Below, in pieces: positions 10,315-13,275 of a stretch of DNA of 21,344 nt. A program made the position numbers and the translations under genes. The stretch's first letter is position 1. Every line of letters starts with the position of its first letter. The notes under the pieces were generated by a model. That model was not told where the DNA came from, made no database searches, and saw only the letters and a program-made list of their open reading frames with translations. Source of the DNA: a phage; the NCBI GenBank assembly GCA_014630515.1, contig GCA_014630515.1_4091.1; one strand, 5' to 3'.

Positions 10315-10527
10315 TTAGTTAATGATAGTCAGTGTAAAATTGTAATCCCCTGCCTGGTATAGTACTTTATCGCCGAACGTGCCAACACGTTTCATATTGC
10401 AATAGATACCCATAACACTTTTTACATCTTTGATATTCCGAACACCTGTGATATCCTTGTTGAAATTTTCATGATCAGAAAATAAAACTTGTTTTGCATT
10501 TTTCAGTACAGTGCGGATATTAGCCAT
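10315..10527 (-). CDS. hypothetical protein (70 aa)
   Basis: ATG 10525-10527; GAGGA SD; track start lies in leader. Confidence 0.65.
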   Translation of the reverse strand: MANIRTVLKNAKQVLFSDHENFNKDITGVRNIKDVKSVMGIYCNMKRVGTFGDKVLYQAGDYNFTLTIIN

Positions 10528-10577
10528 TTTGTTTTTCCTCTTAGTGGGGAGAATCATCTCTCCCCTTGATGTAAACT

Positions 10578-10605
10578 ATTATACAGTACTATAATCTATT
10601 GTCAA
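10578..10605 (-). promoter_or_regulatory. early sigma70-type promoter with 5' stem-loop
   Basis: minus strand TTGACA, 16 bp, TATAAT; leader hairpin GGGGAGAG-atgatt-CTCCCC. Confidence 0.6.
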
Positions 10606-10618
10606 ACTATTTTTTATA

Positions 10619-10957
10619 TTATTCGAAATCTTCTGGACCGGACTGATAATCATCTTCACCGTATGCACTTTCTAACTTCTCACCAGTGCAATCATCAGTT
10701 AGTGAGTCATCCTCATAGTTCACGTCTACGCCAGTGATGTAAAACTGGCTATCGTCTGGATCATTGAAATTAATTTTTTGGATGTTTACAATAACTGTAT
10801 TGATACCCAGGACACCGCCATCAGCCGTTACAAAGTACTGATAGTTTTCGCAACCGCCTGAATTGAAACCGTAATTAATTTCGGCCCGACCATCATTTAA
10901 ACGCAGTGCCTGGGCGATGAATTCGTTTTCAAAGTTAGATTGAGCGATTGAGATCAT
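10619..10957 (-). CDS. acidic protein (112 aa)
   Basis: ATG 10955-10957; AAGGAA SD; C-terminal third is Asp/Glu-rich. Confidence 0.7.
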   Translation of the reverse strand: MISIAQSNFENEFIAQALRLNDGRAEINYGFNSGGCENYQYFVTADGGVLGINTVIVNIQKINFNDPDDSQFYITGVDVNYEDDSLTDDCTGEKLESAYGEDDYQSGPEDFE

Positions 10958-11021
10958 TTTGTAGTTCCTTGTTTGCTTAAGATGGGACTATTATATAATA
11001 GCCCCGTTGTGTTGTCTAGTA

Positions 11022-11489
11022 CTATTTTACGTTAATTTCTAAGTACTGCTCTTTGATGTTTTCCTGTTGGTAAATCTCGTTTAATGCTTTAAGATCTAAC
11101 ACCTGTTTACCTGCGGCCCGAATATACTTGTTAAGAGTCGCTAACAGCTTCTCAGGCGTGTTTGTAGTCTTACGGGTAGGGATTTTGTCATGTCCCATCG
11201 CGTAGTACTGTTTACGTGGAATAGTACTGATAACGCTGCGGTACGGTTCCATGATCAGCTTGTCTGTGTATTCGTCGCTATCCCCGAACTTCATACCGTG
11301 GATCGCAAAGGTCATCATCATGCGGTCGTTATCGCGGATATTGTGGGGGCAGTCGGCAAGCTCGCGAGTCAGTGACATAGTGATCCCCACGTCGCCACCC
11401 AGCGGTAAAGGTCGGGCGATAAAGAAACCGTTAGGGAATACTTTCAGGAAGTTTTCTTGTACTGCTGCGACGAATTCGATGCTATTCAT
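11022..11489 (-). CDS. hypothetical protein (155 aa)
   Basis: ATG 11487-11489; AGGAA SD 7 nt upstream; leader hairpin GGGGAAA-cgg-TTTCCCC. Confidence 0.7.
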   Translation of the reverse strand: MNSIEFVAAVQENFLKVFPNGFFIARPLPLGGDVGITMSLTRELADCPHNIRDNDRMMMTFAIHGMKFGDSDEYTDKLIMEPYRSVISTIPRKQYYAMGHDKIPTRKTTNTPEKLLATLNKYIRAAGKQVLDLKALNEIYQQENIKEQYLEINVK

Positions 11490-11541
11490 AATTCATTTCC
11501 TTAGTTACCAGGGGAAACCGTTTCCCCTTGCTATGTAAAAC

Positions 11542-11569
11542 ATTATACTTGATTCTAAGTACAATGCAA
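11542..11569 (-). promoter_or_regulatory. early sigma70-type promoter with 5' stem-loop
   Basis: minus strand TTGCAT, 16 bp, TATAAT. Confidence 0.6.
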
Positions 11570-11589
11570 GTACTTTTTGCAAAATACTT

Positions 11590-11772
11590 TTAATCTCTTT
11601 GATACTCACATAACGCCATATCATACGCAATTGACGCTGATTTGAAATCATCGTGACGCTCAATCTCTTTCATGTCTACATAGATGATCCATAGGTTTAC
11701 GTCTTCCTGGCGTATGATAACGGCAGGTTTACCGATGATATGTGATGCCGCTAGTTCGATTGGTTTAAACAT
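11590..11772 (-). CDS. hypothetical protein (60 aa)
   Basis: ATG 11770-11772; AAGGAG SD 8 nt upstream; transcribed from the promoter inside repeat element D. Confidence 0.65.
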   Translation of the reverse strand: MFKPIELAASHIIGKPAVIIRQEDVNLWIIYVDMKEIERHDDFKSASIAYDMALCEYQRD

Positions 11773-11805
11773 TGTAGTACTCCTTATTAGATTGATATAT
11801 TTTAT

Positions 11806-11892
11806 TTACACTTCCGCACCCGGTGGGCTAGTGAGCTATCTCTCAATGAATATATAATAGCAAAATGGCTGACCGAAGTCAACCACTTTTTT
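11806..11892 (-). repeat. repeat element D: conserved leader motif, embedded promoter, variant hairpin
   Basis: core GCACCCGGTGGGCTAGTGAG; hairpin TGGCTGACCGAAGTCAACCA with compensatory changes relative to A-C; T6 on plus strand; minus-strand TTGACT, 17 bp, TATTAT (11854-11882). Confidence 0.6.
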
Positions 11893-12029
11893 CATTTATT
11901 TTTAGCTTTCAGAATCGCCGCCTTTCGCGTCATGCCTTGCTTGATGTACTCCTTTACTTTCGCTTTACGTGCTTTCGCTTTATCTGCTTTCGTTTTAGGA
12001 GTACTGTAAATTAAACCGTTAGGATTCAT
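11892..12029 (-). CDS. lysine-rich small protein (45 aa), not in ORF track
   Basis: ATG 12027-12029 directly follows TAA of 12030..12119 (TAAATG); about one third Lys/Arg; stop TGA 11892-11894. Confidence 0.45.
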   Translation of the reverse strand: MNPNGLIYSTPKTKADKAKARKAKVKEYIKQGMTRKAAILKAKNK

Positions 12030-12119
12030 TTAAATCACCATAAAGAATAGATAGGTTACTAACAATGCCGCGATCAATGCACCGACCAGGGCCGAACTGT
12101 AATAAGCTAATGATTTCAT
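12030..12119 (-). CDS. small hydrophobic membrane peptide (29 aa), not in ORF track
   Basis: ATG 12117-12119 overlaps TGA of 12116..12268 (ATGA); translation MKSLAYYSSALVGALIAALLVTYLFFMVI has one predicted transmembrane helix. Confidence 0.45.
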   Translation of the reverse strand: MKSLAYYSSALVGALIAALLVTYLFFMVI

Positions 12120-12268
12120 TTTTTAGCCTGAAAGTAATGTTTAATTTGTGCGGCTGTCAGTGCACAATTACGCAGGAAGTTTTCTGTATAACTCCTACGA
12201 GTACTGAAAGAAAATTGACCTTTGCCGTTGCCGATAGTAACATCAAACCGAGCGTTGTATTGTTTCAT
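12116..12268 (-). CDS. hypothetical protein (50 aa)
   Basis: ATG 12266-12268; AGGAG SD 7 nt upstream; track start 12298 lies in leader. Confidence 0.6.
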   Translation of the reverse strand: MKQYNARFDVTIGNGKGQFSFSTRRSYTENFLRNCALTAAQIKHYFQAKK

Positions 12269-12318
12269 TTTGATTCTCCTAGTATCGGGGAGAATCATTC
12301 CCCCCCTCTATGTAAACA

Positions 12319-12346
12319 ATTATACAGTACTGAAAACTAATTGCAA
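12319..12346 (-). promoter_or_regulatory. early sigma70-type promoter with 5' stem-loop
   Basis: minus strand TTGCAA, 16 bp, TATAAT. Confidence 0.6.
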
Positions 12347-12349
12347 GTA

Positions 12350-12496
12350 CTATTTTTTAGATTTACGCAAACTTTCTACCATCTCAGGAGTAAGGTCCGG
12401 CGGGTAGGAAACCACTTCATCAACGAAACGTAAAGGGAATACCCCAGCGAAAGGTGAACATGCTTTCTTAGTATTACTCTTTTTTGATGCTTTCAT
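12350..12496 (-). CDS. hypothetical small protein (48 aa), not in ORF track
   Basis: ATG 12494-12496; AAGGA SD 7 nt upstream; stop TAG 12350-12352. Confidence 0.55.
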   Translation of the reverse strand: MKASKKSNTKKACSPFAGVFPLRFVDEVVSYPPDLTPEMVESLRKSKK

Positions 12497-12547
12497 TTCA
12501 TATTCCTTAATTAGTGGGGAGTACTATTTCTCCCCTTCATGTAAAAC

Positions 12548-12575
12548 ATTATACAGTACTGAAAACTAATTGCAA
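12548..12575 (-). promoter_or_regulatory. early sigma70-type promoter with 5' stem-loop
   Basis: minus strand TTGCAA, 16 bp, TATAAT. Confidence 0.6.
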
Positions 12576-12578
12576 GTA

Positions 12579-12821
12579 TTATTTTAAACTTTGTGCGACT
12601 AATTTCGCACGGTCAATCATATACTGCCATTTTTGGATCTCTTCTGGTAGAAAACGATATTCACCAATAACAATAGTGATACACTTTTCAGCCTGGTCAA
12701 TGTATGTAGTATCAATCTCGACTTGAACGGGTACACGTTCGCCGTAATCAGTGCCAGGGATAATGCAATCATTATCATAAGTAACAGTAGTTGCAGTGTC
12801 TTTGATTAAAATTGTTTCCAT
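12579..12821 (-). CDS. hypothetical protein (80 aa)
   Basis: ATG 12819-12821; weak GAGAG-type SD. Confidence 0.6.
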   Translation of the reverse strand: METILIKDTATTVTYDNDCIIPGTDYGERVPVQVEIDTTYIDQAEKCITIVIGEYRFLPEEIQKWQYMIDRAKLVAQSLK

Positions 12822-12875
12822 TATACTTTCTCTCTTTGAGTGAGGCGGGAACTATTCCCGCTCTCGATGTAAACA

Positions 12876-12903
12876 ATTATACAGTACTGAAAACTAATTG
12901 CAA
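12876..12903 (-). promoter_or_regulatory. early sigma70-type promoter with 5' stem-loop
   Basis: minus strand TTGCAA, 16 bp, TATAAT; leader hairpin GCGGGAA-ctatt-CCCGC. Confidence 0.6.
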
Positions 12904-13103
12904 GTATTATTTTCTAAAAAATGATTGTATGCTGCATCAACCACTCTTTCGATAACATACGCCAACGGCACGTATCCAACTACATGACTACAATAGAAAG
13001 GACTACGATTAGAATCATCGTATGCAAATACTTTACCAGGTACGGCATCAATCACATACATATTAACCTTTAAGATGTCAATCTTATCCTGTACAGTAAG
13101 CAT
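12894..13103 (-). CDS. hypothetical protein (69 aa)
   Basis: ATG 13101-13103 lies 1 nt after TAA of 13105..13275; track start is a TTG inside the upstream gene. Confidence 0.55.
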   Translation of the reverse strand: MLTVQDKIDILKVNMYVIDAVPGKVFAYDDSNRSPFYCSHVVGYVPLAYVIERVVDAAYNHFLENNTCN

Positions 13104-13104
13104 A

Positions 13105-13275
13105 TTACGCCGCCTTATCAGTACTGGCAACCGGACGGATACGGGCCATCGCCTGGGCTTGTTCTACGCTGTATTGTTCGTATAGTCTGCATTCTTCCGG
13201 TGTAGGAATAGCATCAATACGTTTCATTGGTTTAATGATGCTTTCAACTTCATTCAGTACTTGATTAACGTTCAT
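13105..13275 (-). CDS. hypothetical small protein (56 aa), not in ORF track
   Basis: ATG 13273-13275; GAGGA SD 7 nt upstream; stop TAA 13105-13107; the overlapping track ORF 13272..13502 is in another frame. Confidence 0.55.
   Translation of the reverse strand: MNVNQVLNEVESIIKPMKRIDAIPTPEECRLYEQYSVEQAQAMARIRPVASTDKAA

Follow-up and report, generated by a model that had tools for sequence, protein, structure and literature searches.

Jumbo phages carry hundreds of tiny early ORFans; the jumbo phages of the genus Asteriusvirus are Rak2-like myoviruses of ~350 kb with Escherichia coli and Salmonella as hosts. On the bacterial side, E. coli produces small single-pass inner-membrane proteins such as KdpF and PmrR (29 amino acids (aa) each), MgtS (31 aa) and AcrZ (49 aa), and small inner-membrane peptides are often operon-encoded and overlooked by gene callers. 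Here, we analysed a 21,344-nt stretch of phage DNA (contig GCA_014630515.1_4091.1; its full length is referred to as the window) and, within it, three adjacent open reading frames (ORFs) of 50, 29 and 45 aa (genes 1, 2 and 3; together, the trio) that had been singled out in a sequence-only reading. Two described systems come closest to their setting. In T4-type phages, PeSL (promoter-early stem-loop) elements, which combine near-consensus σ70 promoters with polyG/polyC stem-loops, form recombination linkers between ORFan cassettes (PMC2839356, PMC4122927), and in the related Rak2-like phage CBB, regions of short genes with RpoD-like promoters were read as early host-takeover genes (PMC5259590). 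We put a probability of roughly 0.78 on the reading that the trio is a self-contained early three-cistron operon of the Asteriusvirus terminal-repeat/early region, with coupled translation, a membrane peptide among its products, and a role suggested by context.

Layout and conservation of the trio

The window represents a ~21-kb early or terminal-repeat region of an Asteriusvirus, i.e. a PBECO4/121Q-like jumbo coliphage, and is matched at 88.6–97.4% identity by 36 Asteriusvirus genomes, including PBECO4, 121Q, phAPEC6 and G17. In phage vB_Ec-M-J, the trio falls within an annotated 21.5-kb direct terminal repeat; in fEgEco12, it occupies about 9.1–9.5 kb, inside a direct terminal repeat whose reported length of 21.0 kb is backed by restriction digests (PMC13070987). 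Tiny genes on the minus strand, mostly behind one shared promoter motif, are arrayed along the entire 21.3-kb window.

Both the coordinates and the peptide sequences given for the three ORFs in the sequence-only reading were correct, and all three lie on the minus strand (Table 1). Between positions 12350 and 11850, this strand carries, in order, a promoter, a stem-loop, an AGGAG element, the 50-, 29- and 45-aa ORFs, a terminator and a T-run; by its sequence signals, the trio is one transcription unit, reaching from a predicted σ70-type promoter to a predicted intrinsic terminator. At the gene 1/gene 2 junction, stop and start codons share a true 4-nt ATGA overlap (ATG 12119–12117, TGA 12118–12116), whereas at the gene 2/gene 3 junction, TAAATG (12032–12027), they abut with a 0-nt spacer and no shared base, so that the double overlap originally described holds for the first junction only. 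Gene 2 is preceded by a bare AGG as its Shine-Dalgarno (SD) sequence, forming a weak duplex of -2.5 kcal/mol with the 3′ tail of 16S rRNA; with an SD of its own almost absent, its translation most likely depends on termination–reinitiation at the ATGA. Gene 3, in contrast, has a strong ribosome-binding site of its own (GGUGAU), embedded in the last codons of gene 2. The block ATGGTGATTTAAATG around this site is invariant in all 24 loci compared, and the embedded SD accounts for the near-invariance of the gene 2 3′ end at the nucleotide level. The proposal of a tightly packed, probably translationally coupled unit is thereby supported.

The comparative set comprised 24 aligned homologous Asteriusvirus loci (L001–L024), all close relatives at about 89–97% identity. 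The three ORFs, their order and both junctions (ATGA and TAAATG, each invariant) are kept in 24/24 loci, the exception being the UNVERIFIED, low-quality CMSTMSU record, in which the 50- and 45-aa frames are disrupted by single-base indels in homopolymers, and the 29-aa ORF has an in-frame 6-nt deletion. By codon position, variable sites number 4/2/16 in the 50-aa ORF, 5/1/8 in the 29-aa ORF and 4/0/12 in the C-terminal 21 codons of the 45-aa ORF, with ratios of nonsynonymous to synonymous polymorphism (pN/pS) of 0.077 and 0.22 for the first two. The replacements within the 29-aa peptide are all conservative (K2R, S3T, L4F, L11V, V12I, L15M, T22A), and alternative frames either have a pN/pS >1 or are riddled with stops. 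By this comparison of sequences, all three frames are shown to be under purifying selection; taken alone, the substitution test for the 29-aa ORF is suggestive. Frame conservation in related phages, the check proposed in the sequence-only reading, therefore favours coding.

Two competing ORF calls were rejected. An antisense 91-aa ORF, annotated as a coding sequence (CDS) in UE-S1, has a pN/pS of 2.0 with codon position 1 the most variable; it is stop-free across its overlap with gene 1 in every relative tested, and the substitution pattern marks it as an artefact of the sense gene. A mechanically called 60-aa extension of gene 1 would start (ATG 12298) in the loop of the upstream hairpin with no SD at a suitable distance, and several relatives have a 1-nt insertion that disrupts this longer frame, whereas AGGAG precedes the 50-aa start.

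Most relatives have GenBank annotations for the 50- and 45-aa genes, which belong to PHROGs 7119 and 29913, respectively. For the 29-aa gene, at least eight relatives have one (phAPEC6 as gp520c, SHEFM2K, SD-15_S21, E9.1, JP4, fEgEco12, ELP-22 and WPEC3), and the exact protein is present in NCBI and UniRef as a hypothetical protein. The expectation that the small ORFs would be missed by standard gene callers thus applies to the many curated records that omit the 29-aa ORF (121Q, G17, A4, PBECO4 and SP27 among them), but not to PHANOTATE/Pharokka-type annotations or to phAPEC6, in which it is called, nor to the two larger genes.

The trio's promoter belongs to a repeated motif, AGTACTTGCAA...CAGTACTGTATAAT, whose –10 block CAGTACTGTATAAT occurs in 25 copies in the window (≤2 mismatches) as opposed to 0.34 expected. 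The G/C hairpins of the window fold at -11.5 to -12.6 kcal/mol. That of the trio is not significantly more stable than shuffled sequence (z -1.0; 29/200 shuffles fold equally well), and the equivalent hairpin of the next upstream cassette reaches a z of -2.2; in the 24 relatives, the G/C stem is kept throughout (24/24), with variation in the loop and flanks. All relatives retain the terminator, with a single loop change that is compensated. Its stem contains TTGACT, the –35 of the next gene's promoter, and an extended –10, TGCTATTAT, lies after the T-run; as judged from these signals, the element is a composite terminator/promoter. A ~50-nt version of it recurs in the Klebsiella phages RaK2, K64-1 and phiKp_21 at 86–94% identity, far better conserved there than the flanking genes. 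The 26-aa ORF lying over the terminator coincides with this element and was judged spurious; in position, it matches a 33-aa ORF of PHANOTATE-type annotations 3′ of the trio.

Taken as a mechanism, host σ70 RNA polymerase would start at TTGCAA-16-TATAAT, producing a transcript that opens with the G/C stem-loop and stops at the intrinsic terminator. Ribosomes would load at AGGAG and make the 50-aa protein; those ending at the TGA of ATGA would most likely restart on the overlapping ATG to make the 29-aa peptide, and the start of gene 3 may use its own SD, the closeness of the gene 2 stop, or both.

Table 1 Coordinates of the trio, its expression signals, neighbouring cassettes and related ORFs (window positions unless a locus is named)
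Feature	Coordinates	Strand	Evidence or remark
Predicted σ70-type early promoter, TTGCAA-16 nt-TATAAT	12319..12346	-	consensus scan, 10/12 matches; sequence match alone
G-run/C-run stem-loop just 3′ of the –10, predicted mRNA 5′ end	12287..12306	-	RNA fold -12.6 kcal/mol; no T-run after it
Putative SD AGGAG of gene 1	12276..12280	-	7 nt 5′ of ATG; 16S 3′ tail duplex -8.0 kcal/mol
Gene 1, 50 aa, MKQYNARF...QAKK	12116..12268	-	
Gene 2, 29 aa, MKSLAYYSSALVGALIAALLVTYLFFMVI	12030..12119	-	
Putative SD GGTGAT of gene 3, within last gene 2 codons	12034..12039	-	extended 16S tail duplex -9.1 kcal/mol
Gene 3, 45 aa, MNPNGLIY...KAKNK	11892..12029	-	
Predicted intrinsic terminator: 12-bp stem, UUCG loop, T-run	11889-11862 (composite element 11854..11889)	-	-15.9 kcal/mol, z=-5.6
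Cassette g48, 48 aa	12350-12496		
Cassette g80, 80 aa	12579-12821		
Cassette g60, 60 aa	11590-11772		
Antisense 91-aa ORF	12065..12340	+	rejected
26-aa ORF over terminator	11802..11882		rejected
Promoter-like site inside gene 1	12215-12243	+	9/12
38-aa transmembrane ORF, RaK2	L025 850-966		
38-aa transmembrane ORF, K64-1	L029		
38-aa transmembrane ORF, Muenster and RCIP0023	L030/L031 701-817		
59-aa soluble cistron, uncultured Rak2-like phages	L034 962-1141; L035 611-790		coupled to 50-aa homologue

Products of the trio and their counterparts in other phages

The 29-aa product was proposed to be a hydrophobic membrane peptide, and its composition fits a single pass through the membrane: the best 19-residue Kyte-Doolittle mean is 2.69 (residues 11–29), K2 is the sole charge, acidic residues number zero, and the hydrophobic stretch reaches the C-terminus with no charged tail. 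With a hydrophobic segment of ≥19 residues and a positive charge on one side, the peptide has the hydropathy expected of single-pass micropeptides, and we infer a tail-anchored-type inner-membrane peptide, N-in by the positive-inside rule. It resembles the small E. coli inner-membrane proteins in its length of ~30 aa, single helix, short positive N-terminus and lack of a soluble domain. Unlike KdpF, PmrR, MgtS and AcrZ, it is phage-encoded and, by prediction, early, and has neither sequence similarity to them nor a match in NCBIfam or Pfam.

By tblastn against phages, the 29-aa peptide was found in Asteriusvirus only. In Alcyoneusvirus, an unannotated 38-aa hydrophobic transmembrane (TM) ORF is located at the same position, between ORF338 and ORF339 of RaK2, with coupling to both neighbours. 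In RaK2 and K64-1, it starts with an ATG that shares bases with the stop of ORF338 (TAATG); in Muenster and RCIP0023, the stop is shifted and the start is a TTG that overlaps it (TTGA). The junction with the next gene is ATGA in all four phages. Conservation across nine Klebsiella phage records is 71–100%, with 10/3/11 variable sites by codon position and a pN/pS of 0.26–0.46. In KP13-7, the 38-aa peptide is encoded ~1 kb 3′ of the ORF338 homologue, just past an annotated 333-aa gene. Exact RaK2-type 38-aa sequences were absent from the protein collection searched.

A metagenomic contig (L032) may link the two peptide types, as it encodes a 50-aa homologue (72% identity), followed by a 33-aa TM ORF and then by a homologue of RaK2 ORF339; its peptide ends in ...FLFFTLI, that of the window in ...YLFFMVI. 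When ungapped BLOSUM62 scores were compared with those of composition-preserving shuffles, the L032 peptide resembled that of the window (z=5.1, P~0.001) as well as those of RaK2 and Muenster (P~0.01 and 0.002, respectively). By transitivity, the window, L032 and RaK2-type micropeptides therefore probably form one family.

Gene 1 encodes a member of PHROG 7119 (121Q gp286; E=7.3e-28, residues 1–50 against profile positions 3–52 of 52), characterized by a GNGKG sequence. A confident AlphaFold2 (AF2) model with a mean predicted local distance difference test score (pLDDT) of 92.6 comprises four short strands, an invariant GNG turn and two helices, suggestive of a small beta-meander/beta+helix fold with a helix-turn-helix (HTH)-like C-terminus, CALTAAQIKHYF. 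Within it, CALTAAQIKHYFQAKK resembles helix 2-turn-helix 3 of homeodomain/HTH proteins, and the family motif reads C-x-L-T-x-x-Q-I-x-x-(Y/W)-F. An hhalign comparison of the family with the Antennapedia homeodomain gave 53% probability over 18 columns, and the Pfam model SAM_SMF scored 20.1 bits, under its cut-off of 27. The family profile (alignment A3) also matches large multi-HTH/multi-homeodomain proteins through many weak repeats (P0062, P0068, P0069, P0074, P0080). The HTH-like C-terminus hints at DNA binding, which we regard as a lead and not as a classification. Fold searches of PDB and BFVD with the 50-aa model returned no significant match outside the family to which it belongs.

Homologues of the 50-aa protein occur in Klebsiella Alcyoneusvirus, rV5-like Vequintavirinae, Certrevirus/Pectobacterium phages and many metagenomic contigs, at 42–54% identity in RaK2, rV5 and PBES02 (54% for RaK2 ORF338); an IMG/VR scan with the protein gave 121Q as the sole match. 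Its downstream partners vary. In two loci of uncultured Rak2-like phages (L034 and L035), the cistron coupled to the 50-aa homologue encodes a soluble 59-aa protein (MIYGYISYNGNFIETSKTERGAKSAATRNG...), and gene 1 may therefore head small operons with interchangeable second cistrons; in rV5, PBES02 and L036–L039, the homologue is followed by a promoter and unrelated genes, with no coupled partner. Neither the HTH-like C-terminus of PHROG 7119 nor the frequent coupling to TM micro-ORFs in Rak2-like phages appears in any annotation seen.

The 45-aa product was correctly described as rich in Lys and Arg, being strongly basic with 12 Lys and 2 Arg against 2 acidic residues (net charge of about +12). 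It corresponds to PHROG 29913 (121Q gp287; E=3.2e-32, residues 1–45 of 45) and is predicted to be a Lys-rich, highly basic helical hairpin, with helices at residues 14–30 and 35–44 in the AF2 model (pLDDT 80.8). The protein has a variable N-terminal third and a conserved C-terminal stretch, EYIKQGMTRKAAxLKAK. The gene was detected in Asteriusvirus only; at this place, RaK2 carries a 101-aa gene unrelated to it. An aureocin A53-type bacteriocin was considered and rejected for this protein, the score being 16.5 bits against an NCBIfam cut-off of 27 and the likeness compositional (23 Lys-rich residues).

The further suggestion that the trio's products resemble membrane-active or nucleic-acid-binding effectors had been drawn from composition, and no match in Pfam, NCBIfam, PADLOC, PDB or the fold searches assigns a function to any of them; matches to T3SS_ATPase_C and endonuclease VII were sub-threshold or compositional. 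A role can be proposed from context: the products may be accessory host-takeover or superinfection-exclusion-type factors of the first minutes of infection, with the membrane peptide acting on or in the inner membrane at a dose set by its coupling to gene 1.

Cassette shuffling and the AGTACT palindrome

The surroundings of the trio differ between close relatives. In the window, the order is g78 - g80 - g48 - [50-29-45] - g60, as compared to g78 - g48 - g80 - [trio] in A4 and ELP-22, g78 - g80 - [trio] in PBECO4, g78 - [trio] in 121Q, SD-15_S21, CRJP21 and TH47, and g78 - g48 - [trio] in most genomes. Within the spans fetched, g60 follows the trio in the window and A4 only. The trio itself is undivided in the 24 genomes, and g48, g80 and g60 around it are present, absent or swapped. 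In this part of the window (~10500–13200), cassette breakpoints coincide with the repeated promoter/G-C hairpin elements. The trio accordingly moves as a block, with its single-gene neighbours shuffled at the promoter/hairpin repeats.

This behaviour invites comparison with PeSL elements. As in the T4-type phages, σ70 promoters and polyG/polyC stem-loops are repeated within a region of tiny ORFans, close relatives differ by gain, loss or swap of whole element-bounded cassettes (indel, replacement and shuffling), and a composite terminator/promoter is present; the trio's hairpin matches the PeSL subclass with a stem-loop sequence downstream of the –10 ('SLS downstream of -10'; PMC2839356). There are also differences. 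The genome is that of a Rak2-like jumbo phage and not of a member of the Tevenvirinae, and the region is a long direct terminal repeat instead of a T4-type hyperplastic region. Moreover, the window's G/C hairpin lacks a T-run and is probably placed in the 5′ untranslated region, its repeat also bears two AGTACT palindromes, and the trio cassette holds three coupled cistrons as opposed to the one ORFan of a PeSL cassette. By analogy and sequence, the region appears to work like a PeSL array, outside the described T4-type family.

The AGTACT palindrome is the top hexamer of the window, with 133 copies across positions 1–21344 against 6.6 ± 2.9 expected from dinucleotide shuffles (~20-fold; e.g. 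12000–12005, 12200–12205, 12326–12331 and 12346–12351). Outside the tested minus-strand ORFs (≥40 aa), 85 sites were counted, with two copies in a typical promoter, positioned on the flanks of the –35 and adjoining the –10; the 48 sites within ORFs are spread over all three phases. Of 24 Ser-Thr dipeptides, 16 are encoded as AGT-ACT against 3.4 expected, an excess that indicates selection at the DNA level. The density of 6–10 per kb seen in the window recurs in RaK2-type and uncultured Rak2-like loci (L025, L029–L038, L040, L041), and the loci of rV5, PBES02 and L039 have no copies. In 121Q, AGTACT is dense over about 131–155.7 kb and absent in adjacent stretches. A text search of the literature returned no paper describing the motif. 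AGTACT may serve early/terminal-repeat DNA as a site of protein binding, recombination or modification, and as a regional motif it may merit more attention than the trio.

Alternative explanations and implications

Three other explanations were considered for the trio, all of which are less well supported than the three-cistron cassette. The 29-aa ORF could be no gene at all, and instead an 87-nt open spacer conserved through recent kinship and by the ribosome-binding site of gene 3. Its absence from many curated records would fit, as would an ORF 3′ half that is almost invariant even at synonymous sites and contains GGTGAT, and the small number of variable sites. Yet where sites do vary, they follow the 5/1/8 pattern with low pN/pS and replacements that are all conservative and hydrophobic; the CMSTMSU deletion stays in frame; Alcyoneusvirus and L032 have a TM micro-ORF in the corresponding place, its stop/start coupling surviving a change of start codon; and the window's other intergenic spacers carry promoter/hairpin repeats, of which the 29-aa stretch has none. 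We consider a mere spacer very unlikely. Still more improbable, in our estimate, is a toxin or lysis module in which the peptide is a membrane-damaging type I toxin (of the Hok, TisB or Ibs kind), a holin, an antiholin or a single-gene lysis factor. Small, hydrophobic and alpha-helical, the peptide does have the size and architecture of type I toxins (Hok, TisB, Ibs, Ldr, ShoB; 19–50 aa), with a hydrophobic helix of ~20 residues and a short polar N-terminus. Type I systems, however, are standalone loci with an antisense or divergent small RNA, whereas this ORF is internal to an operon: a promoter scan revealed no convincing antisense promoter or small RNA opposite it, the sole nearby plus-strand promoter-like site falls inside gene 1, and the peptide, conserved together with the upstream gene, would be co-translated and not silenced by an inert or structured leader. 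Against a holin or antiholin speak a C-terminus that ends within the hydrophobic helix and has no charged tail, the lack of an adjacent endolysin (the neighbours being tiny ORFans with σ70 promoters) and a σ70-type promoter in a presumed early region. Searches of PADLOC, NCBIfam and Pfam gave no match.

The three ORFs might also be real and independently translated, functionally unrelated to one another. In that case, compaction of the genome would account for their packing, and convergence for the TM ORFs that follow 50-aa homologues in other genera. The varied downstream partners of the 50-aa family (soluble in two uncultured phages, none in others) lend this explanation some support; the 45-aa gene, confined to Asteriusvirus and replaced by an unrelated gene in RaK2, and the lack of direct similarity between the window and RaK2 peptides would agree with it. 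The weak gene 2 SD and the invariant ATGA point instead to dependence on gene 1, coupling has outlasted the change of start codon in Muenster and RCIP0023, the trio stays together throughout the 24 genomes despite its shuffling neighbours, and L032 links both peptide types. On balance, we regard independent genes as rather unlikely. A bolder version of the operon reading would take the 50-aa HTH-like protein and its stop-coupled micropeptide as the two parts of an early module conserved among Rak2-like jumbo phages (Asteriusvirus, Alcyoneusvirus and uncultured relatives). In this version, the micropeptide would be a dosage-coupled inner-membrane effector that works with or tethers its soluble partner and serves, for example, to exclude superinfecting phages or to inhibit a membrane protein of the host; we think this unlikely and offer it as speculation.

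Several observations count against the early three-cistron operon. Searches of the three products against Pfam, NCBIfam, PADLOC and PDB yielded nothing above threshold. The 29-aa test draws on just 14 variable sites among close relatives, and an open 29-codon ORF kept in such relatives is weak evidence by itself. In Alcyoneusvirus, the +1 frame of the 38-aa ORF has a pN/pS of 0.32–0.58, not clearly worse than that of the ORF itself. The window and RaK2 peptides, compared directly, have no significant similarity (P=0.56), TM segments easily resemble one another, and homologues of gene 1 are not always paired with a TM peptide. Finally, a literature search found no transcriptomic, ribosome-profiling or proteomic data on this Asteriusvirus region, which is why transcription timing, coupling and membrane insertion are put forward here as predictions.

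With regard to the biology of these phages, the trio is a set of ordinary small early genes, already deposited as hypotheticals; the existence of the ORFs is not new, the finding is routine, and current understanding is unchanged by it. What is new is the comparative support for the 29-aa ORF as a probable real, coupled gene, its link to unannotated TM micro-ORFs at the same position in the RaK2-like Klebsiella phages RaK2, K64-1 and Muenster, and the description of the region as an array in which promoter/hairpin cassettes shuffle in a PeSL-like manner. The genomes of Asteriusvirus and Alcyoneusvirus could be re-annotated with the help of these results, and screens for micropeptides active in host takeover or anti-defence could draw candidates from them.

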